Source of the DNA: an uncultured Gemmatimonadaceae bacterium
GTDB taxonomy: Bacteria > Gemmatimonadota > Gemmatimonadetes > Gemmatimonadales > Gemmatimonadaceae
Assembly (NCBI GenBank): GCA_963829055.1
Contig: CAWHHI010000011.1
Location: 128,001 to 192,000 of the forward strand
Length of the DNA stretch: 64,000 bases
Direction of reading: 5' to 3'
A program made the position numbers and the translations under genes. Position 1 is the first letter of the stretch. The number at the start of each line of letters is the position of its first letter. Positions 2,937 through 17,143 of the stretch are shown here, one piece after another. Under the pieces are notes generated by a model. That model did no database searches and was not told where the DNA came from. It saw nothing but the letters and a program-made list of their open reading frames with translations.

Positions 2937-4013
2937 TTACCGTCCTGCCGTTGCGCGACCGGCACGGCGGGAACTGGGAACCGGGAACTGGGAACCGGGC
3001 GCTGCTTGCTGCACGCCGCGTGCAGCCTCCTGTTCCCTGTTCCCCGTTCCCGGTTCCCCCCGTCGCGTTTCCAGATAGTCGACGAAATCGAGCCACGGAT
3101 CAAACCCCACGACGTTCACGGCATCCGCCACGAAATTCGACAGCGCGTTCACATCGTAGTAGTAGTGCTTCCCATCGCGGTCATCGACGAGGTATTCGAT
3201 GCCACCGATATCGAGCTTCGCCGCCTGCGCGATACGCTCCACCTCCGCGATGATCTCGGCCGACGGCGTCGTGCCCTCCACGCGCAGGCCCGTCTTCGGG
3301 GCGTCGATCGCGCAGGCGCCACGCACGAGCTCCACGCCGTTCGTCGTCTGACACGCGTCCGCCGGGCAGAGGTCGAACGAGCCGACCGCCGGGAACACGT
3401 TGATCGCGTACAGGTACCGGCCGCCTAACGTCTCAACGCGCGTGATGTGACCGTTGCGCAGCGGTGCCGACTCCTGCACCAGCGCTGTGCCGTCCACGCC
3501 GAGTGTCACACGGCCCGCTTCGACTTCCGCCGCGAGCGCTTCGGGGGTGTCGTATCGCACGATGCCGGCGCCGCTGCCGCCGACGTTCGCCTTCACGAGC
3601 ACCGGGAACCGCAGCTGGCTCGCCGCCGCCGGCGCCTGCGCCGCGTCGTTGATCACGATCGAGCGTGGATACGGAAGCCCGAGCTCCGTGAGCAGATCGA
3701 GCTGCGTCGCCTTCGAGATCTCGAGGCCGTAGACGTGCGAGCCATTCACGACGGGCACGCCGAGTCGCTCGAGATGCCGCAGCAGATGGAGCGTGTAGAA
3801 CGTCGTCTGACCGTGCGCGCGCAGGTACGCCGACGGGCTCGCGCGATTCACGACGAGCGAGTACGGCGCTTCGCGTTCTGACGGATCGAACTGATGCGAC
3901 GCAGCGTCGAGTCTGACGTATGGAATCCCGCGCCGTTCGAGCTCGGCAAATAGTGGGCGGAACCAGTCTGGGTGTTCGTGGAAAATGCCGATGGGAAGTG
4001 CAGCCGTGGACAT
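2937..4013 (-). CDS. ATP-grasp (RimK/glutathione synthetase-like) protein
   Basis: FPVLVKANVGGSGAGI, LVQE, GIEYL..YYDVNALSNF ATP-grasp motifs; CPADAC motif; ATG at 4013; C-terminus extended by a repeat insertion. Confidence 0.8.
   Translation of the reverse strand: MSTAALPIGIFHEHPDWFRPLFAELERRGIPYVRLDAASHQFDPSEREAPYSLVVNRASPSAYLRAHGQTTFYTLHLLRHLERLGVPVVNGSHVYGLEISKATQLDLLTELGLPYPRSIVINDAAQAPAAASQLRFPVLVKANVGGSGAGIVRYDTPEALAAEVEAGRVTLGVDGTALVQESAPLRNGHITRVETLGGRYLYAINVFPAVGSFDLCPADACQTTNGVELVRGACAIDAPKTGLRVEGTTPSAEIIAEVERIAQAAKLDIGGIEYLVDDRDGKHYYYDVNALSNFVADAVNVVGFDPWLDFVDYLETRRGEPGTGNREQEAARGVQQAAPGSQFPVPSSRRAGRATAGR
2969..3060. repeat. Heptamer-unit inverted repeat (GGGAAC[T/C])n...(GTTCCC[T/C/G])n inside the 3' end of the ATP-grasp ORF
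   Basis: Four GGGAAC units at 2969-2996 and four GTTCCC units at about 3032-3058. Confidence 0.75.
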
Positions 4014-4017
4014 GATA

Positions 4018-4593
4018 TCAACGCTCCGCGAGAGTAGGCGACGACGTCGCCGCCTGGTGAGGCTGGTGAATGCGCGCACTGAGGGTGATCGCCTCGGACG
4101 CCGCTACGTCTATCCGGGCAAGCAGGGATTGGTTCGGCACCCCATTCTCGAACGCCGAGTCGGTGCCGTAGATGGCGGTGGGCGTGATGACCGCGCCGAC
4201 GCTGGCGAACAGCGGACGCAGTCCGTGATCGATCACGAGTTGATGAGCCGGCGACCCGCCCGTGGCGATCGCGATCCCGGTCTTATCGACGAGCCCGTTG
4301 AGCGGCAGCAGGTCGAAGAAGACCTTGAGCAGCCCGCTGTACGTCGCGCGGTACACGGGCGTGCTCGCGACGACGATCGTCGCATCAGCAACTCGTGCAA
4401 GGGCTTCGTCGACCTCGCTGGAGCGACGCCGGCCGAGCAGCGCGTCGGCTGGCAGCGCGGCGAGGTCGACGAGAGCGGTCGTCGCGCCACGCTCGACGAG
4501 CGAGGCCAGCGTCCGCTCGAGGAGCGCACGCGATTTCGAGCGCGCCGCCGGGCTGCCCGAGATACCAATGGCGTTGATAGTTGTGGCGTTCAT
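4018..4593 (-). CDS. NAD(P)H-dependent FMN reductase (SsuE/MsuE-like)
   Basis: ISGSPAARSKS, ASTPVYRATYSGLLKVFFDLL, ATGGSPAH, LRPLF flavodoxin-fold motifs; alternative starts up to 4614. Confidence 0.88.
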   Translation of the reverse strand: MNATTINAIGISGSPAARSKSRALLERTLASLVERGATTALVDLAALPADALLGRRRSSEVDEALARVADATIVVASTPVYRATYSGLLKVFFDLLPLNGLVDKTGIAIATGGSPAHQLVIDHGLRPLFASVGAVITPTAIYGTDSAFENGVPNQSLLARIDVAASEAITLSARIHQPHQAATSSPTLAER

Positions 4594-6899: not shown

Positions 6900-9800
6900 T
6901 TGGAAGCTGCCAGACACCCAGGCTCCATTATCGCCAGTCGCTATACGTTAGAGCGCGAGCTCGGACGTGGCGGGATGGCAACGGTGTACCTCGCCCGCGA
7001 CAGCCGACACGACTCGCTCGTCGCGATCAAGATTCTGCATCCCGAATTCGCACCGTTGTTCGGCGGCGAGCGGTTCGCGCGCGAGATCCGCATCACGGCC
7101 GGACTGCAACACCCGAACGTCGTGCCGGTGCTCGACTCGGGGGACGCCGACGGCCTGCCCTTCTACGCCATGCCATTCGTCGACGGCGAGTCGCTGGCGA
7201 CGCGGTTACAGCGAGAGCATCAGCTCCCGATCAACGACGCGCTCGGCATTGCGGCTGAGGTCGCCGATGCGCTCGCCTACGCGCACGATCGCGGCTTCGT
7301 GCACCGCGACATCAAACCGCAGAACATCCTGCTGTCGAACGGCCACGCCGTGCTCGCGGACTTCGGCATCGCGCGCGCCATGGACGTCGCCAGCGGCGAG
7401 AACATCACCGAGTCGGGTGTCGCACTCGGTACGGCAATGTACATGAGCCCCGAACAGGGTTCGGGCGGAAAGGTCGACGGACGGAGCGACATCTACGCAC
7501 TCGGCTGCGTGTTGTACGAGATGCTGGCCGGCTCGGCGCCGTTCACGGGACCGACGTTGCAGACGGTGCTGGCGCGACACGCCGTCGATCCAGTGCCGCC
7601 GATCCGCACCGTTAGGCAGACGGTCGGTCCGGCGCTGGAGGAGCTGCTCGCGAGAACGCTGGCCAAAGTTCCCGCGGACCGCTTCTCGACGGCCCACGAG
7701 CTCAGGACCGCGATTGCCGGAGCAACCGCCGAGCAGGCGACGCTGCCGACGACGGCCGCCAGACGTGCATCGCCAACGCGCACGAACCGGCGGACCGCGA
7801 TCATGGCGGCGGTCGGCCTGGCAGTCGCGGCGATAGGCGTCTTGTCCTGGCGAGCGATCAGACCCGGCGCTGATGCTCTGGACCAGAATCGCATCGCGGT
7901 CTTTCCGCTGAGCCTACCCGCCGGATACACCGGCACCCGATCGTTAGGCGAGGACATCGCGACAATGATCGGCCATGCACTCGACGGAACCGGTCCGCTG
8001 CGCGCGGTGGATGGCTGGCGTCTGCTCGAGTCGCAGCCCGCCGCAGAACGCGTCTCGCCGGCGAACACTGTGCTGCGCACGCTCGCGCGCGAGCGTGGCT
8101 GCGCGTTCTACCTCGCGGGTAGCTTCGTTCAGCCCCCCGGTGATTCGCTGCGAGTGGTGCTTCGGCTGGTGGACGTGGCGAACGATTCGCTTGTGAAGAA
8201 GACGGAGGCGGTCGGCATTGCGGCGGATCCGTGGCGCGTCGGCGTTCGCGCCCTCAATCAGGTGCTGCCCACTCTCATACCCGCTGGCGCTGAGCGTGAG
8301 CTGGTCGCCGGTTGGCTCGACCGCGATCCTCAGGTGATCGCGACCTTCCTCCTTGGCGAGGCGGCGTTCCGTCGCGCGCGTCCAGCGGAAGCACTCGCGC
8401 GTTACCGCGATGCGCTGCGTTCCGACTCTACGTTCACGCTCGCGGCCGTGCGGGGCGCGCAAGCAGCAACGTGGGACCATCGACCGAGTGAGGCCGCGTC
8501 GCTGATCCAGGCGGCACTCGCGCAGCCCATGACTCCGCGTTATGCACACTTCGCTCGCGGCTACGCGGCGTACCTCCAGGGCAACGCCGACTCGGCCACC
8601 GCCGAGTTCCACGAGGTGCTGAAGGTCGATCCCGACATGGCGACGGCGTGGATGCAGCTCGGCGAGACGTACACGCATCTGCTGCCCGTGTCGGGCGACC
8701 CGACGCTCGCGGCGGACAGCGCATTCGCCGAGGCCATGCGCCTCGACCCGTCGGCGTCGCACATGTTGTTTCATCCGATCGAGATTCGGCTGCGCCGCGG
8801 CCAGACGCCCGAGGCCGCGCCGCTCATTCGCCAGTTCCTCGCTGCGGACCCCGACTCGACGCTCGCCGAGCAGATCCGGGTCATGGATGCGTGCGTGTCG
8901 CGTGGCCCCGAAAGCGTGGATTGGGCGAAAGCGATTGCCACTCGCCCGATGGCGGTGTTGTTCGCCGCACAGTCGCTCGCGGTGGCCGGCGCCCAGTTGC
9001 CGTGCGCAGCCGCCGCGTACACGGCCATTCGCGTCCACGAGACACCGGCGATGGCCGCCGCGGACCCGGTCGTCGACACGCGGCGCTGGACTGCGCTCGT
9101 GGGGCTGCAGGGCGTCCTGCTGGCTGAAGGACTCGCGGAACAAGCGGGTCTTCACGTCGACTCGGCGGTCGCACGCGGCGAGGGTGGCCATTCGGTGATG
9201 CTCATCGACGGTGCACTGTCGCCGGCTTTCGAGGCGCGTGCCGCGCAGGCGATGCGGAAATACGAGGCGCAGTGGGGACCGCGCTGCGAGCGCTGCACGT
9301 CCAACGACCGACTCTGGCAGCTCGGCGTCTGGGCGGGGCAGCAGCGAGACACCGCGTCGCTGCGCGCGTTGTCTGCCGCACTCAAGACGCGCGCGGATTC
9401 CACCGGAGCGCGGGGGGTGGCGCTCATGGCGCAAGCCACCGCGGCGCGTGCAGCACTCGCGCGCGGGGAGCTCGCGCCCGCAACGACGGCGCTCGAGGCC
9501 GTGCTGGCAACGCCCGTCGCGAGCGGCGGGGAACTATTATGGCGCGACGCGGAGGGCCGCGGCCCAGAGCGGCTGGCACTGGCGCGTGGGCTCATGCGGC
9601 AACGGCAGTTCAGACGCGCGATCGACGTTGCCGACGTGTTCGATTCGCCGGCGACGCAGACCTACGTCGCCTATCTCCCGGCCAGCCTCGAGCTGCGAGC
9701 TGCGGCTGCGGACTCGCTGGGAGACGCCTCGATCGTACCTCGCTATCGCGCGCGGATCGCGTCGCTCCGGGCGCTGGCGTCGGAAGCACCTCGGCCATAG
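6900..9800 (+). CDS. Membrane Ser/Thr protein kinase with C-terminal TolB-like/TPR region
   Basis: GRGGMA, VAIK, HRDIKPQN, DFG, YMSPEQ; TM segment AIMAAVGLAVAAIGVLSW; TPR-like helices; TTG start at 6900 after GGAGG. Confidence 0.92.
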   Translation: MEAARHPGSIIASRYTLERELGRGGMATVYLARDSRHDSLVAIKILHPEFAPLFGGERFAREIRITAGLQHPNVVPVLDSGDADGLPFYAMPFVDGESLATRLQREHQLPINDALGIAAEVADALAYAHDRGFVHRDIKPQNILLSNGHAVLADFGIARAMDVASGENITESGVALGTAMYMSPEQGSGGKVDGRSDIYALGCVLYEMLAGSAPFTGPTLQTVLARHAVDPVPPIRTVRQTVGPALEELLARTLAKVPADRFSTAHELRTAIAGATAEQATLPTTAARRASPTRTNRRTAIMAAVGLAVAAIGVLSWRAIRPGADALDQNRIAVFPLSLPAGYTGTRSLGEDIATMIGHALDGTGPLRAVDGWRLLESQPAAERVSPANTVLRTLARERGCAFYLAGSFVQPPGDSLRVVLRLVDVANDSLVKKTEAVGIAADPWRVGVRALNQVLPTLIPAGAERELVAGWLDRDPQVIATFLLGEAAFRRARPAEALARYRDALRSDSTFTLAAVRGAQAATWDHRPSEAASLIQAALAQPMTPRYAHFARGYAAYLQGNADSATAEFHEVLKVDPDMATAWMQLGETYTHLLPVSGDPTLAADSAFAEAMRLDPSASHMLFHPIEIRLRRGQTPEAAPLIRQFLAADPDSTLAEQIRVMDACVSRGPESVDWAKAIATRPMAVLFAAQSLAVAGAQLPCAAAAYTAIRVHETPAMAAADPVVDTRRWTALVGLQGVLLAEGLAEQAGLHVDSAVARGEGGHSVMLIDGALSPAFEARAAQAMRKYEAQWGPRCERCTSNDRLWQLGVWAGQQRDTASLRALSAALKTRADSTGARGVALMAQATAARAALARGELAPATTALEAVLATPVASGGELLWRDAEGRGPERLALARGLMRQRQFRRAIDVADVFDSPATQTYVAYLPASLELRAAAADSLGDASIVPRYRARIASLRALASEAPRP

Positions 9801-9868
9801 GAATCGCAGTCAGTACAGGAGTTGGTGGGCAGTAGCGAATGCAGGTTTCCATTCCTCGTGAGGAACAC

Positions 9869-10162
9869 ATGATCGATCCACAACAGGACCCGTTAGGCAC
9901 TGCGGCAAGCACACGCGAAGGACCGTCCGCACCACCGGCCAAGGGCGGCGATGGCCGCGAAGGCCCGTCCGCGCCGCCGATCGGCGGCGGCGAGGGACGC
10001 GAGGGGCCGTCCGCACCGCCGCTCAAGGGCGGGGAGGGACGCGAAGGCCCGTCCGCACCACCACTCAAGGGCGGCGAGGGGCGCGAGGGCCCATCGGCCC
10101 CGCCCATCGGCGGTGGTGAAGGACGTGGCGGGCCGCCGTCGCCGCCGCCGCGCACCACCTAA
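9869..10162 (+). CDS. 97-aa Pro/Gly-rich peptide with tandem 14-aa repeats REGPSAPPxxGG[DE]G
   Basis: GAGG RBS; five 42-bp units (9914-10123) plus one degenerate unit; differences in the REGPSAPP core are synonymous. Confidence 0.75.
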   Translation: MIDPQQDPLGTAASTREGPSAPPAKGGDGREGPSAPPIGGGEGREGPSAPPLKGGEGREGPSAPPLKGGEGREGPSAPPIGGGEGRGGPPSPPPRTT

Positions 10163-10242
10163 CGCACGGATTCCCGGGTTGCTCGCGTCGCACCACGTGC
10201 GGCGACGCGAGCGCCCCTGCCACTCATCGACCACTCCGTCCC

Positions 10243-12333
10243 ATGACCACCGAATCGACTGCTGCGCCATCCGGTGCGAAGCGCGCCCTGCTCATCGGCG
10301 TGGACCAGTACCAGTCGCCGAAGATCCCGAAGCTCCAGGGGTGCGTGAACGACGCTGGTCTCATGCGGACCATCCTGCTCGAGCAGTTCGGCGTTCCAGA
10401 GGCAAACCTGACGCTGCTCACGGATGAGCGGGCCACGCGCGATGCGATTCTCGCCGCGTTCGACAAGCTCGTCGCCGACACGGGTGCCGACGACGTCGTG
10501 GTGTTCTACTACGCGGGTCATGGCTCGCAGATGACCGACCGCGAGGGTGACGAGGCGAGTGGGCTCGACAACACGATCATGCCGGTCGATAGTGAAGGCT
10601 GGTCGGGGATCAACCGCGACATCACCGACGACGAGATCCATCTCCGTCTCGTCGCGTTAGGTAAGAAGACGTCGTACATCACGCTCATCGTGGACGCGTG
10701 CCACTCGGCCACCATCACGCGTGATGCCTTCGGTGTGATGTCCCGCGGGGTGCAGGCGGACACGCGTCCCGTGTCGGAGCTGCCACCGTCGCCCATACCG
10801 CAGGCGGCCACGCGCTCGGCGTCCGGCGTGCGGAGCGAGAGTGGTCCGAGCGGCTGGATGCCACTCGCCGATCAGTACGTGCTGATCGCCGGCTGCCGCG
10901 ATGAGGAGACGTCGTTCGAGTATCGTCCACCCGAAGGAGACGGAAAGCTCGTACACGGCGCGCTCACGTACTTCCTGTCGCAGGAGCTCGGCCGCGCCAC
11001 GCCCGGCACGAGCTACCGCGACGTGTTCGAACGCGCGGCAGCTCGCGTCACCGCGAACAACGCCAGGCAGCATCCGCAGATGGAAGGGCGCGTCGATCGC
11101 GCACTGTTCGGCGTCGCCGATCTGCAGCCGATGCATTTTACGCGCGTGGTCTCACGAACCGGCGACACGGTGACGCTGGCCGCCGGCGCCGCCCAGGGGA
11201 TGACGGTGGGATCCGTGTGGGCGGTGTACCCGCAGGGCACCAAGCACACCGAAGGCGCCTCCGAGCTCGGGACGGTCGAGATCACCCAGGTGGGCGGCGT
11301 GAGAGCCAGCGCGCGCGTGACCTCGGAAACGACCCCGAATGCGATCGCGAGCGACACACGCGCGGTGGAGCGCGTGCACGCCTACGGCACGATGCGCATG
11401 CGGGTGCAGCTCGCGCCTAACGTGGCTGCCGCTGAAGCGCGCGGTGTGGCGCAGGCCAGGTCGCTGCGTGAAGCGCTGGCCGAATCGCGCCTCATCGAGG
11501 TCGTGGGCGCCGACGATGCCACCGCCGCCGCACGCATTTATCTCGTCGAGCCGCGCGCGGCCGCTGGGCCTGACGATCCGGTTCCACAGCTCGGCCCCGT
11601 CAGCGTTGCCGTGTGGGCCGTGGTCACGACGGACGGCCAGCTGCAGATGCCGCCCAAGCCGCTCGACGCGTTCGCGGAGGTGGGTGAGAATCTCGAGACG
11701 CTCGCCCGGTGCCGGCAGGCGCTCGACCTCGAGAACCCGAGCCCGACGAGCACACTCCGCGGCAAGTTCGAGCTCGAGCTGCTGCGTCGCGGTGCCGACG
11801 GCAAGTGGGTGGTCGCGCAGCCCGAAGTCGCCGGTGGTCTGCCGGTGTTCACTGACGGCGACGACATCGCGTTCGAGATCAAGAGCCGGCACGACGTCAA
11901 CGCGTTCGTGAGCCTCCTCGATTTCAGTCCGACTGGCGCCATCTCCCTCGTCTTCCCGGCGCCTAACGCCACCGATCAGATCACGCCCACGGTACGGTTC
12001 CAGATCGGGACGCGCGGTGGTGACGACGACTTCGCGGTGTCGTTCCCGTCGGGCTACCCTTATTCGGGTGGTTCGACGACTGCCCCGACGGACGCGCTCG
12101 AGACAGTAAAGCTGTTCGTGACGACGGCGCAGGCGGACTTCAAGTTCCTCGAGCAGCGCGGCGTCCGTGGCGTCGGCCAGTCTCCTGGTGGCGCGCTGCA
12201 ACTGCTGTGGGAGACGGCGGCCGGCATGGGGTCAATGCGCGACATCGGGCGTAAATCGGTGCCCGTGGACACCGAGGACTGGACGACGGTCGTGAAGCCG
12301 TTCACAGTGCGCCGCAAGCCGGCCGGCGCCTAA
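10243..12333 (+). CDS. Caspase-family (C14, metacaspase/orthocaspase-like) protease with C-terminal DUF4384-like domain
   Basis: KRALLIGVDQY, LQGCVNDA, YAGHG (catalytic His), DACHS (catalytic Cys), HGALT, QHPQ; beta-rich C-terminal domain (GDDIAFEI..SLVFP..ETVKLF). Confidence 0.9.
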   Translation: MTTESTAAPSGAKRALLIGVDQYQSPKIPKLQGCVNDAGLMRTILLEQFGVPEANLTLLTDERATRDAILAAFDKLVADTGADDVVVFYYAGHGSQMTDREGDEASGLDNTIMPVDSEGWSGINRDITDDEIHLRLVALGKKTSYITLIVDACHSATITRDAFGVMSRGVQADTRPVSELPPSPIPQAATRSASGVRSESGPSGWMPLADQYVLIAGCRDEETSFEYRPPEGDGKLVHGALTYFLSQELGRATPGTSYRDVFERAAARVTANNARQHPQMEGRVDRALFGVADLQPMHFTRVVSRTGDTVTLAAGAAQGMTVGSVWAVYPQGTKHTEGASELGTVEITQVGGVRASARVTSETTPNAIASDTRAVERVHAYGTMRMRVQLAPNVAAAEARGVAQARSLREALAESRLIEVVGADDATAAARIYLVEPRAAAGPDDPVPQLGPVSVAVWAVVTTDGQLQMPPKPLDAFAEVGENLETLARCRQALDLENPSPTSTLRGKFELELLRRGADGKWVVAQPEVAGGLPVFTDGDDIAFEIKSRHDVNAFVSLLDFSPTGAISLVFPAPNATDQITPTVRFQIGTRGGDDDFAVSFPSGYPYSGGSTTAPTDALETVKLFVTTAQADFKFLEQRGVRGVGQSPGGALQLLWETAAGMGSMRDIGRKSVPVDTEDWTTVVKPFTVRRKPAGA

Positions 12334-12498: not shown

Positions 12499-15400
12499 TC
12501 AGCGCGTGCACCGTTGCGGGGGTCGTGACCCCGCCGGAGCGTCGACGATCCAGCGGTCGATCGATTCCTTCGAGTACGCGACCGCGCAGGCGCGCGCCAG
12601 CCACGCTTCCGGGTCCGTCAGGATGCGTACGATCTGTCCCGCTGCGTTCACCGCCAGCAACGCGCGACCGCTGTCGCCGAACGTGAGCCCCACCGCCTGA
12701 CCCTGCCCCGTTTCGATCTCCCCGATGATGTCGCCGCGCGCCACATCGCCGAGCGTCACCACGCCGTCCGTGTCGATCGCAAACAGGCGCCCATCGGGCG
12801 AGAGCGCGAACACATCGGGAGGCGGCCCCGATTTCCAGCGAAAGCGTGACGTCGGCTCGTGCCTGCCGCGCGTCCAGAACTGCACCATGAGGCCGTCGAG
12901 CGCCGCGACCACACTACCGTCCGCGCTCGTGCCCAACCCGGCGTACACTCCGATACCACTCAGTGAATCACGGACCCGCCTGGTCGCGAGATCCCACACC
13001 AGAATCGAAAACTGCGGTCCCTGCGTGACGAGCAGGTCTCCGCGCGGACTGAATTCCACCGGCGCGGGAAGGTTCGAATCCCAGAACTTGGGGCCGTTGT
13101 CGATGCCCGCGCGGAGAGTGTCCGCGGTCCTCGCGGCGAGATCCGCTACCACGACGGTGCGCGTACCCGGCAACGCGTACGCGACGCGTGCGGTCGATGC
13201 ATCCACCGCCACGGCAGCGTCCTTCGGGCTACCGACCAGCCGGTCCGGTGCGTCGCCGGCACCCTGAAACACGTACGCCGGCCCGCCGTCGCCATCGCTC
13301 GAGCCAGCGACGAGGAGACCGCCCGATGCACCGATGTACACATCCTGGCCGACGATGCGCCGGCGCGCCGCGCGGTCGTAGACGGCGCCGCGAACAGCGG
13401 GCGACGCGGTGATATCCCACACCGCGAGCTCGCCCCCAAACCCCCGTTGCGTCACCGCGAGCCTTCCATCCTTCGTTAGGCTCGTCACTTTCGTGGCCGT
13501 GTCGATGGGTAGCGCCGAGCGACGTATCAGTGCGCTATCGGCAAGATCCCAGACGTGAACGGTGCCCTCCAACGTGAGCGTCGCGATGCGGCCGCGCGTT
13601 CCGCTCACCACCAACACGTCGGGGATGTCGCCCGCCCCGTGCAGCGTGAGCGATGGCGCTCCCGGGTCCAGAGGCTGACTCGCGTCCAGGGGGCGCTCGA
13701 ACACGCGAACCTCGCCGTTCGGCGCAGCCGCCACCAGCGCCGCGTCGCGCTCCGTGAACGCCACGTCGCTGAACGTGACGCCAGTCATGAGACGTGCAGG
13801 CCGGTTCGACCGCAGCGGCCATAACGCGAGCGTATCTCCGGACGTCATGCGACCCGAGATGACCAGCGTGGAATTGTCGCGACTCACGGCGACGCCGGGT
13901 GGGAGAAAGCGAGAGCCGCCGCGCACGGTCCGCACCAGTTTCCCCGTCGCGACGTCCCAGACGCTGGTGCGCCCATTGTCCGCCATCGTGACCACGAGCG
14001 AGCCGTCCGTGCTGAACGCCGCTGGGAACGGCGGACTCGTGTGCCCGACGAGACGACTGCGCGAGCGCCCTGTCTCGAGGTCGAACAAGACCACGTCGTT
14101 GCCCTCGCCAACGGCAACCACGTGGCGCCCGTCGGCCGTTGGCGGTCCCACCCGCCAGGCGAGCGATTCCGGCCAGCTGGTGCCTGCCACGGGTGTCTCG
14201 CCTAACGACAGCGACAGCGAGTCGGACACCGCGGCCGCAATCGCCGCGGCCTTCGTCTTCTTCGCCTCGCGCAGCTCGGCTTCGCTCCACCGGCGCACCG
14301 GGACCTCACCCAGCTTTCGCCCCGTGGCCGCGTCCCACACGCGGAGCGTCGCGACGTCCGACGTCGAGTCACCCGAGACCGAGCTATACGTCATTCCGCT
14401 CGCGTCGAGAGTGACGGCGTTGCGATTCACCTCGGCCGGAAACGCCGTCTGCCGCGTTTCTACTCCGGTCGCGACGTCCATCGTGTAGATGCCATCGGGC
14501 CCCACGAGGAGCGCCCGCTCGCCATCGGGAGCAAACACCAGCTTCGTTCCGCCAGTGGAGGTCACGCGTACCAGCGTTGGGTCGCGCGCGAGCTGCGTGA
14601 ACAGCGCGCGCCGCGCCTCGAACGTCGGCGACTGCTGGTACGACGCGACGGCGTAGAGGAAGCCCAGGTCGCGTTGTTCCGGATCTGCTGACGATGCCCG
14701 CGCGCCCCACTCGCGCGACGTGCTGTCGGCGAGCCGAGCCTGCGATTGCCGATACAGAATCCAGCTGCCGACGCCGAACGCCGCGATGAGCGCGGCCGCG
14801 GCGATCGCACCGCGAACGACCCACGCGCGACGACGTCGTGCCCGATCGCGTTCGACGCGACTCGCCGCGACGAGCGCCCGCTCCTCGTCGTTCCACGCAC
14901 GCATCCCGCTCTCGCCAGTCTCGACCACGGCCAGGTCCGCCGCATCGAGTGGAATCCCGACGTGGCCATCTTTCCACTCGGCCGACCGCCCATCGAGCAC
15001 GCGCTTCGCCCTCGGCCCTGGCAGATCGGAGCGATCGAAGCGGTCGCGGACGATTGGCGCGAGTGTATCGTGGGCGAGGCGCGCCGTCGGATCCGCGAGC
15101 GGTGCACCGGTATCGTCGGTGTCGCGCACGACCAGGAGAAACAGTCGCGCGCACATCGCGCGAAGCCCGGGCGCCGTCTCGTTCGCGTGCGGATAGCGCT
15201 TGCTCTCTTCGCTGGCCGAGTGCTCGTCGGACGTCGCCTTGGGCGTCGTATAGAAGCGGAGGAATTCGAGCGCGAGACCGGAATCGACCGCCGCGGCATT
15301 CCAGGTGCGGAGCGCCTCCAACTGCTGCGTCACGAAGCCGTCGAGCTGCTTCGCTTTCGCGCGCACCGTTTCGTACAGCGCGGCGTCGAAGCGGACGACG

Positions 15401-17143
15401 TTCGCGGGACTGCCCTTCCGAGGCGCATCGGCCCACAGCTCCGCGAGCAGGATCTGCAGCAGCGGCGCGACGTGCGACGCGCGATTCGCGAGCAGATCGT
15501 CGGCGATCACGACGTCGAGCCCAGCCTCGAGCTCGAGACGCGTTGGCATTCGTCGCGCGGGAACGCGCGTTGGTCCGGTGATCGCCTCCAGCACGCCGCC
15601 GCGTGTGAGCTGCTCCAGGCGATGCTCGGTGCGAGCAACGCGGTGCGCCTCGAGCGCGCCCTTCACTTCCGACAGCCACTCCTTCCGGAATCCGAGTACG
15701 AGTCGCCCACGTGGGCGCGTCGCAGGCGTCGCGAAGAGATTCGCGATGGCGGCGGCGAACGCGTCGAGCTCACGCGCGCCGCTGCCTGCCGCGACGCGTC
15801 CCGCATCCTCGCTCGTGTACGCCTCCTCGAGCTGGTCGACGACGACGAACAGCGGTCGCCCACACTGCGCCTCGACGGCCCGCCACCGCTCGGCCACGGC
15901 CTCCGCGTCCGTCGCACGAGTGGCCTCGACGCCGAGCGTCGTGGCGAGTGTGCCGAGCAACCCGAGCGCGCGGTCGCGAGGCGCGTAGCGGACTTCGTGA
16001 GTACTCGTTAGGCGCGGCAGCAGCCCGGCGTCGAGCAGCGACGACTTGCCGACACCGGTCGCGCCGTACAGCAGCACCACTGACTCGGACGCCGCGCTCG
16101 TGACCTTGTCGTACAGCTCGCGAATGTCCTTGCCGCGTCCGAAGAACAGCTCCGCGTGCTTGCGGCTGAACGGACGCAGGTGTCTGAACGGCTCGGTGAG
16201 CGGCTCGTCGGTTTCCGGTAGCGTCGGCAGGCCGAACAGCGGATTTCCCGCAGCTTCGGGGAGCGCCCATGGACCGACCGTCTCCTCCGCGCCGCGCCGG
16301 AAGTAGAGGTCCCATGGCCAGCGTCCGTCGTCGGTCGTGACCGCGCTCTTCCGGCCAATGTCGCGGCTGCCTGACGATTCCGGCGCTGGTTGCACCACCT
16401 GCGACGCTGCGTCCGCGGAGGCGTGCATCGAGTCCGCCGTCGAGCCGCGGGCTGACCGCTCCGTGCTTGAAGCGAACGCCTGACGCGGCCTCGTCGTACG
16501 CGCGCTTGATGCCCGCCCCGCTTCCGAGTCCCTGATACAGCAGCACCGCGAACTGATGCGCGATCGCATCCTCGACGCTCCGCGACGTCGCCACCACGGC
16601 ACCAACGCCGGCGTCGCGGAGCGCGTCGACGTGCGCCTGTGTTGCGCACGCGTTGAGCACGACGAGCTGCAGCCCACGCTGACAGCCGAGGAACGCGGCG
16701 AGACCACTGGCATCGGCGACGGCCGTGGTGCCATCGGCGGTTTCGAACAACAACCCTTCTGGCCCGGCATGTCCCGCGAAGTGCAGAACGCCGATCCGGT
16801 CGCGATACGCGTCGTTCTGAAAGACGCGCATCACCTGCTCCGGCGTCGCATCCGGCAGCGTAACGACCTCGCAGATGCCGCCGCTCTGTGCCTCGCCGAG
16901 CGCCGCGACGATGTCGTTGAGCTCGAGGCTCAAGCTCCGGAGATGCCGCGCCCCCACAGCCTCGTTCGCGGTCGCGACGAGAATGACGGGCGCTCGACGC
17001 TCTACCGGTGCTGCGGTGGACGTCGACGCGTCGAGTGTCGGAGACGCGGGAGCGACGGTGTCTATGGGTTCCTTACGCTGGGAGCGGACAGGATACGTTA
17101 GCGCGGGCTGCTGCGTGCCGGAAGCGTCCGCCACTCCAGGCAC
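12499..17143 (-). CDS. CHAT protease - nSTAND-type NTPase - TM - WD40 beta-propeller protein (NLR-like); frameshift near 16450
   Basis: N-terminal frame has HFAGH and LNAC (CHAT dyad). Main frame has PFRHLRPF..FFGR, Walker A GATGVGKSS, Walker B VVDQLEE, PLLQ, a TM helix and many WD repeats. Start is uncertain. Confidence 0.85.

Follow-up and report, generated by a model that had tools for sequence, protein, structure and literature searches.

What is the function of a short open reading frame (ORF) of near-identical 14-residue repeats that lies between a gene for a predicted receptor kinase and a gene for a metacaspase, in a window of 64,000 nucleotides from an uncultured Gemmatimonadaceae bacterium, and do the three genes belong together? 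The features that bear on this question are as follows (positions within the window; basis in parentheses).

6900–9800, + strand: Hanks-type Ser/Thr kinase with one transmembrane (TM) helix, a small α/β domain, and a long TPR superhelix; predicted receptor (Pfam, motifs, hydropathy)
7794–7850, + strand: predicted TM helix of the kinase, with the more basic flank on its N side (hydropathy, charge count in relatives)
7923–9797, + strand: predicted periplasmic domain, consisting of an α/β head and a TPR superhelix, with two invariant Cys residues (AlphaFold2, Foldseek, alignment)
9860–9864, + strand: Shine–Dalgarno-like GAGGA of the peptide gene (sequence; similar sites in relatives)
9869–10162, + strand: leaderless repeat peptide gene; predicted multi-core precursor (translation, repeat scan, codon comparison, relatives)
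9914–10123, + strand: five 42-nt units with one Arg each (codon comparison)
10243–12333, + strand: metacaspase (C14, p20 and p10-like part) with a C-terminal DUF4384-like domain and no TM helix (Pfam, alignment, hydropathy)
12238–12258, + strand: Arg-Asp motif (residues 666–672) in a low-confidence loop of the caspase; possible processing site (sequence, model)
12499–17143, − strand: CHAT, nSTAND1, and WD40 gene; associated, outside the core three genes (Pfam, coding score)

Translation of 9869–10162 on the + strand gives 97 residues, of which the first 15 form a leader; five units of 14 residues and a degenerate sixth follow. This layout, already described in the sequence-only reading, was confirmed by the translation and by Tandem Repeats Finder, in which the ORF is the strongest array of the window (period 42; score, 234, versus 50–71 for the remaining arrays). 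The units start with their Arg codons at 9914, 9956, 9998, 10040, and 10082, and a sixth Arg (codon at 10124) begins the degenerate unit. The earlier claim of selection on the peptide is borne out by the codon differences between the five units, of which 62 are synonymous and 18 non-synonymous in pairwise comparison; 72 of the 96 base differences fall on the third codon position (14/10/72 by position). Three of the four bases that distinguish the peptide gene of a near-identical strain (L105) are silent. The absence of a signal peptide also held, as the translation contains no hydrophobic leader. The spacing between GAGGA and the ATG is only 4 nt, and an in-frame ATG at 9839 provides a second possible start. 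A promoter and terminator scan around the ORF gave nothing exceeding chance. The peptide matched no family in Pfam or NCBIfam and none of the 7985 candidates scored in a protein search; ESM Atlas holds the sequence itself with no look-alike, and no second copy of the repeat core was found in the own genome.

Silent variation alone cannot choose the strand, because an antisense frame (9610–10158) uses the same wobble positions and is likewise repetitive. The + strand is favored since all 20 peptides compared have an ATG and a purine-rich Shine–Dalgarno-like stretch on the sense strand, whereas the antisense frame has no start common to the relatives and overlaps the kinase gene at this locus by 190 nt. 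Both this antisense ORF and an Arg-rich overlapping ORF (9951–10427) were rejected as shadows, their starts and stops not being common to the relatives. Small shares of the stretch are present in 12 soil RNA runs, eight of which were examined by contig; part of the peptide ORF is covered by contigs of 96–99% identity in runs X1, X2, and X6, and the pieces in X7, X9, X10, and X11 fall on the kinase or the caspase, these matches being contigs that are possibly DNA-derived and thus not proof of transcription.

Relatives were sought from the peptide, the kinase, and the caspase in turn. A degenerate two-unit repeat pattern searched against metagenomes gave seven matches, one of them in a strain of the window's own species. 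Homologues lacking the kinase or the caspase, named in the sequence-only reading as an observation that would tell against it, did not occur among them: all seven lie directly behind the same kinase, and the caspase is the next gene in all four stretches with enough DNA. In the kinase-first search, the outer domain was compared with 401 genomes of the phylum and found at 65 places in 57 genomes; 60 loci were taken, 59 of them with a kinase match. Behind these 59 kinases stand ten Arg-repeat peptides, 40 other small genes, and, at nine loci (two at contig ends and one broken), nothing recognizable. A C14 gene adjoins seven of the ten Arg-repeat loci and lies within 9 kb at two more, the last being undecidable, and none was found near the 40 kinases with another small gene (0/40 within 1–8 kb of flanking DNA). 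Most of these 40 caspase-less peptides consist of a helical body and a single Gly/Pro-rich tail, three are Pro repeats, and body and tail form separate ORFs in four loci. By eye, a TM segment or a lipobox stands at the start of ~11 of the 40, which would place the tail outside the cytoplasm.

The caspase-first search covered the best 80 of 170 relatives, including four repeat loci already counted and four without upstream DNA. Among these best 80, a peptide stands between the two genes in 28/28 loci with a kinase upstream, in 9/9 with an exported-type TPR-CHAT protein, and in 5/5 with a divergent membrane TPR gene; three further loci have a peptide at the contig edge, and 30 others have none within ~1.2 kb on the upstream side, the side covered. 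These 30 include L182, L189, and L192, where the TPR-CHAT protein has neither signal nor TM helix. As judged from these comparisons, the peptide ORF is real, under selection, and part of a conserved three-gene unit.

The helical proteins with a Gly/Pro-rich tail make up a large, unnamed family (L092:7236–7484, L096:8821–9009, L097:8583–8759, and ~35 more loci), some members of which are lipoproteins or bear a TM segment, and some of which have Lys-rich N-termini. A small helical gene of the single-tail kind (L095:11992–12339) lies 3 kb from the G366 kinase without adjoining it.

The genes flanking the peptide gene carry the domains previously noted, namely Pkinase and TPR upstream and Peptidase_C14 and DUF4384 downstream. 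The nearest PDB matches of the downstream protein are fungal and plant metacaspases, and its best relatives come from Gemmatimonadota. The catalytic dyad (His93/Cys153) and two S1 residues (Asp37 and Asp151) are invariant in 8/8 caspases and align with Yca1 and AtMC4; the S1 Ser position seems to be Ala in 7/8 by our own alignment mapping. Asp103, Asp129, Asp130, and Asp161, also invariant in the eight, are predicted Ca2+ positions, which we take to be ligands by correspondence with TbMCA2. A p10-like region is present: PF00656 covers residues 13–283, and a second, weak stretch aligns with AtMC4 326–403. In non-metazoan caspase homologues, two Asp and one Ser are reported to bind a basic P1 residue in the S1 pocket (PMC9626678, accessible part), and metacaspases as a class are described as calcium-dependent in the corresponding part of PMC8283722. 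The downstream gene keeps, by alignment, the catalytic motifs of metacaspases, and its product is predicted to cut after Arg or Lys in a Ca2+-dependent manner. The orthocaspase MaOC1 is reported to cut an antitoxin (PMC7935541).

The structure model of the caspase is poor (pLDDT 65.8, from eight sequences) and was used only for the low-confidence loop at residues 632–677. All seven residues of the Arg-Asp motif in this loop recur unchanged in the linker of the adjoining CHAT/STAND gene. An Arg-Asp string is likewise common to caspase and neighbor in 4/17 other pairs (L085, L090, L170, and L176); a crude control that accepts any shared 6-mer, and so is not motif-specific, gave 6/17 for own pairs and 21/272 for cross pairs. 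It is possible that such locus-specific strings are common processing sites of a protease cascade. The CHAT ORF (15770–17143) and the nSTAND1-WD40 ORF (12499–16770), both on the − strand, overlap, with a switch of the coding-score frame near 16480–16400, and are probably one gene split by a frameshift or an assembly error. The own genome holds two further, distant C14-containing genes in tandem (C3:570597–579407; open frames of 1171 and 1643 residues). PADLOC returned only domain-level matches (PD-T4-6 kinase domain, caspase, and SAVED_CHAT) and no whole-system set.

The upstream gene, which ends 68 nt before the peptide ATG and starts at either TTG 6900 or ATG 6975, encodes a kinase domain (Pfam Pkinase, E = 8e-46) with intact Gly loop, HRD, and DFG motifs, followed by TPR. 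Its TM helix has a hydropathy of 2.04, and a helix of at least 1.5 is found in 51 of 57 full-length kinase relatives. The kinase is predicted to be inside and the TPR part in the periplasm, because the flank of the helix on the N side is mostly the more basic one (N side in 42 of the 57 relatives, equal in eight, C side in seven). AlphaFold2 modeled the outer domain as an α/β head and a long helical repeat (pLDDT 93.6, pTM 0.92), for which Foldseek retrieved from the PDB only generic TPR proteins, with a TM-score of at most 0.30. The head gave a weak match to the TolB N-terminal domain (TIGR02800, E = 1.6e-4), far below the cut-off, and Pfam found no CHAT domain in the kinase protein. Cys324 and Cys361 of the outer domain are invariant in 56 sequences. 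The own genome holds 185 kinase candidates, and also one close relative of this kinase. Complex prediction for the outer domain (618 residues) and three peptide units gave 0.01 against a mark of 0.32, in a series in which the controls did not fold.

Across the peptides, the units range from 7 to ~14 residues, vary between lineages, and are alike within one gene. Pro is common in them, and no single ligand motif is common to all, because the units of G336a have no Pro and those of G395 little. The most constant feature is the single Arg of each unit, which usually precedes Glu, Asp, or Gly; by exception, Pro takes this place in L212 and L226 and Thr does so in most L171/L172 units, and L215 lacks such an Arg site. 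Counted by eye with near-copies merged and without a statistical test, an Arg followed by one of these three residues in the Gly/Pro part occurs in 33/33 peptides of caspase-linked kinases versus 4–5 of the 40 caspase-less ones. The Pro repeats without a caspase (G412b and G289) have no Arg in their units, and the repeats in G212 and G164a are paired with more distant C14 proteins. Wherever the peptide is present, it tracks an exported TPR protein, and its Arg sites track the caspase. A FastTree built from 80 outer domains unites the 33 caspase-linked kinases in one clade (support, 99), whose two caspase-less kinases also lack the peptide; G336a was omitted as incomplete and falls outside the clade in another FastTree. 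The Arg–caspase association has few independent origins within the phylum, because the caspase-linked kinases are essentially one clade. In the early branches of the clade (L170, L193, and L163/L166), the peptide has a helical body, and its tail is preceded by one or two Arg sites. With the root of the tree not established, a plausible history would start from a tail on a helical carrier, to which a caspase and an Arg site were added before the carrier was lost and the core multiplied.

Taken together, we tentatively propose, at a little under an even chance, that the peptide gene encodes a leaderless multi-core ligand precursor; the metacaspase would cut it, and upon envelope damage the kinase would sense the products in the periplasm. 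The scheme, in which we infer translation, topology, cleavage and its calcium dependence, binding, damage as the trigger, and the sign of the response, would run as follows. Cleavage of the precursor by the adjoining metacaspase behind every Arg would liberate Gly/Pro peptides of 14 residues, which would bind to the predicted periplasmic TPR domain of the upstream kinase and thereby switch the cytoplasmic kinase domain. Neither precursor nor protease carries an export signal, and the receptor domain is predicted to lie outside, so that contact would require a breach of the inner membrane or lysis of a cell; calcium flowing into such a damaged cell would simultaneously activate the protease. 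With precursor and enzyme predicted to be cytoplasmic, the receptor domain predicted to be periplasmic, and the calcium dependence of metacaspases as a class, envelope damage would thus both activate the enzyme and let its products reach the receptor. The unit would therefore signal that the cell itself or a clonal neighbor is damaged; its repeats would amplify the signal, and kin specificity would come from the lineage-specific cores. No export route is conserved for the peptide, and a 1.3-kDa peptide exceeds what general porins pass; action from cell to cell would therefore need damage or some importer. The sequence-only reading had suggested a multi-core precursor cleaved after Arg, and the comparison supports this, since Arg is the most constant residue and linked to the caspase, which keeps both S1 Asp residues.

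The strongest competitor, which we regard as unlikely, has the repeat protein act uncut, as a multivalent ligand that clusters the receptor kinases, with the metacaspase ending or tuning the signal by its cut. Receptor kinases are usually switched by clustering, and most of the 40 caspase-less relatives have either a helical body bearing the Pro-rich tail or Arg-free repeats, so that the kinase family appears to work without cleavage; the single-tail helical relatives, probably oligomeric, may cluster receptors likewise. Valency is less easily reconciled with the repeat genes that stop right after an Arg, which suggest that the product is a unit with a free C-terminal Arg, and the single-site forms (L170, L179, and L193) match the release of a tail better than a loss of valency.

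The peptide might also serve the protease rather than the receptor, as a decoy substrate or threshold-setting inhibitor that takes up the basal activity of the metacaspase and restrains a CHAT/STAND protease cascade. The many Arg-acidic sites along a disordered chain would suit this role, as would the Arg-Asp motifs common to the caspase and the adjoining CHAT proteins, and the CHAT, STAND-WD40, and Trypco1 neighbors indicate a protease cascade of the conflict type. Such a peptide should follow the caspase, but it tracks the exported TPR proteins instead, being absent upstream of 30 caspase loci and kept by 40 kinases that have no caspase. The decoy offered by the sequence-only reading therefore appears less likely than a ligand, because the kinase is predicted to be a receptor that crosses the membrane once and has a large outer TPR domain, and because the peptide is kept behind it even without the caspase, and we consider the decoy rather improbable.

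The same reading had pointed to the Ser of the repeat as a possible target of the kinase. A phosphorylation substrate or cytoplasmic scaffold, whose phosphorylation gates cleavage or the control of the caspase, would agree with the Ser or Thr found a few residues past the Arg in most units and with the predicted cytoplasmic location of both proteins. This possibility is weakened to the point of being very improbable by the units without any Ser or Thr in at least six loci (G179, G336a, L147, L148, L157, and L216), and by the same kind of peptide standing beside TPR proteins without a kinase. There is scarcely any likelihood of a multi-core RiPP precursor of a modified natural product, or of a functionless leftover repeat, given that, apart from the multi-core layout and an ATP-grasp gene 6 kb upstream on the opposite strand (2937–4079; rejected as a partner because it is not recurrent beside the relatives), the annotated neighborhoods show no recurrent modifying enzyme or exporter, the leader is not conserved, the silent-site bias is strong, and conservation is wide. 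The lanthipeptide synthetase models matched, within the window, the kinase domain only and far below cut-off.

Beyond the phylum, a peptide and a related caspase accompany other exported TPR proteins. At nine loci (eight acidobacterial and one unclassified), a TPR-CHAT gene is followed by a gene for an acidic or Pro-rich peptide of 45–59 residues; the N-terminus is signal-like in five of the nine TPR-CHAT proteins, and the loci examined have ECF sigma or zinc-finger anti-sigma-like genes ahead of the TPR-CHAT gene. The order in the acidobacterial operon (L194, L198, L201, L200, L204, L206, and L215) is ECF sigma, zinc-finger anti-sigma-like protein, exported TPR-CHAT protein, acidic peptide, and metacaspase. 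In some of these operons a small exported protein precedes the metacaspase. In gammaproteobacteria, a divergent membrane TPR gene is accompanied by a peptide at five loci, and at one more the peptide lies at the contig edge; 7-residue repeats ending in Arg precede the metacaspase (L207, L212, L220, L223, L224, and L226). The last unit equals a cleavage product, because these repeat genes stop directly after the Arg of the unit in 5/5 cases. The gammaproteobacterial membrane TPR gene has no recognized output domain, and CHAT or trypsin genes lie downstream at several loci. To judge from these arrangements, the three-gene unit has analogues in at least three phyla. A wider reading, possible but in our view more doubtful than not, is that of a widespread cytokine-like alarm of Gram-negative bacteria, in which a Ca2+-activated metacaspase would process a leaderless multi-core precursor for periplasmic TPR receptors of the same cell or its kin, and in which the Ser/Thr kinase, the TPR-CHAT protein with ECF sigma, and the membrane TPR protein would be interchangeable as receptors.

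The closest functional parallel is found in plants, where PEPR1/2 are the receptor kinases of the Pep system. As in PROPEP1/AtMC4/Pep1, the precursor at this locus is leaderless and has Arg before the putative active peptide, and an Arg-specific cytoplasmic metacaspase and a Ser/Thr receptor kinase reading the peptide across the membrane are all predicted here. The differences are that the present unit is bacterial and contained in one operon, has a TPR instead of an LRR outer domain, and carries many cores per precursor; no sequence kinship of peptide or outer domain was found, and the likeness is one of analogy except for the folds of protease and kinase. The accessible part of a recent report (10.1101/2025.06.11.659102) describes Ca2+-activated AtMC4 freeing Pep1 from leaderless PROPEP1, and ZmMC9 freeing Zip1 fragments from PROZIP1.

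In tandem near-identical cores parted by basic sites, the peptide resembles the precursors of yeast α-factor, cut by Kex2, and of fungal KEPs, which differ in being eukaryotic, secreted through the ER, and cut at dibasic sites by a subtilisin-type enzyme. RRNPP systems (Rap/Phr, PlcR, NprR, and AimR) combine cytoplasmic TPR receptors with precursors that have a signal peptide. They share with the present unit a TPR receptor gene adjoining the gene of its processed peptide, and lineage-specific peptides; the receptor here is instead a predicted membrane kinase, with the TM helix between kinase and TPR in 51/57 relatives, and the precursor is leaderless and multi-core, accompanied by a metacaspase, with no hydrophobic leader seen by eye in the caspase-linked peptides.

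DdvA of the DdvA/DdvS pair in Myxococcus xanthus is, like our kinase, a single-pass protein with a large periplasmic TPR region, whose signal is called elusive, a phage or a periplasmic protein being proposed (PMC11506125, accessible part). As far as that part describes the system, a further likeness lies in the acidobacterial relatives, in which genes for ECF sigma, a zinc-finger anti-sigma-like protein, and an exported TPR-CHAT protein are paired with peptide and metacaspase. The unit in the window differs in having a kinase output, neither an anti-sigma domain nor an outer CHAT domain, and a peptide and C14 metacaspase in the operon. The acidobacterial form suggests that periplasmic TPR-CHAT sensors such as DdvA, as presented there, could sense host-made peptides. 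The caspase/CHAT/nSTAND1/Trypco conflict systems of multicellular bacteria (10.1101/2023.09.22.558884) have the same accessory domains that flank many of our loci, and the accessible part of that report describes no repeat peptide or TPR receptor kinase among them. On the features compared, the unit is no member of the Pep/PEPR, RRNPP, DdvA, or RiPP families. No description of a kinase–peptide–metacaspase unit was found in the open-access literature (PMC and bioRxiv; listings and the beginnings of abstracts), and the unit is apparently undescribed.

To our knowledge, few natural substrates of bacterial metacaspases have been established, and we know of no ligand for the many TPR receptor kinases of Gemmatimonadota. 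If the wider reading of a cytokine-like alarm holds, it would supply both, and the alarm would be a convergent bacterial counterpart of the PROPEP/metacaspase/receptor-kinase wound signaling of plants. Candidate protease, substrate, and receptor lie in one operon and come in dozens of natural variants with differing cores, so that cleavage, binding, and cognate specificity are testable with three purified parts. Among these variants, some Arg-repeat peptides are fused N- or C-terminally to long Lys/Ala-rich histone-like segments (L107:5566–6219, L174:4830–5830, and L165). In another genome (G164; L088:3905–8485), genes for an exported TPR protein and for a membrane protein with a TIR domain come after the repeat peptide, then a short C14 gene and, farther along, Trypco1.
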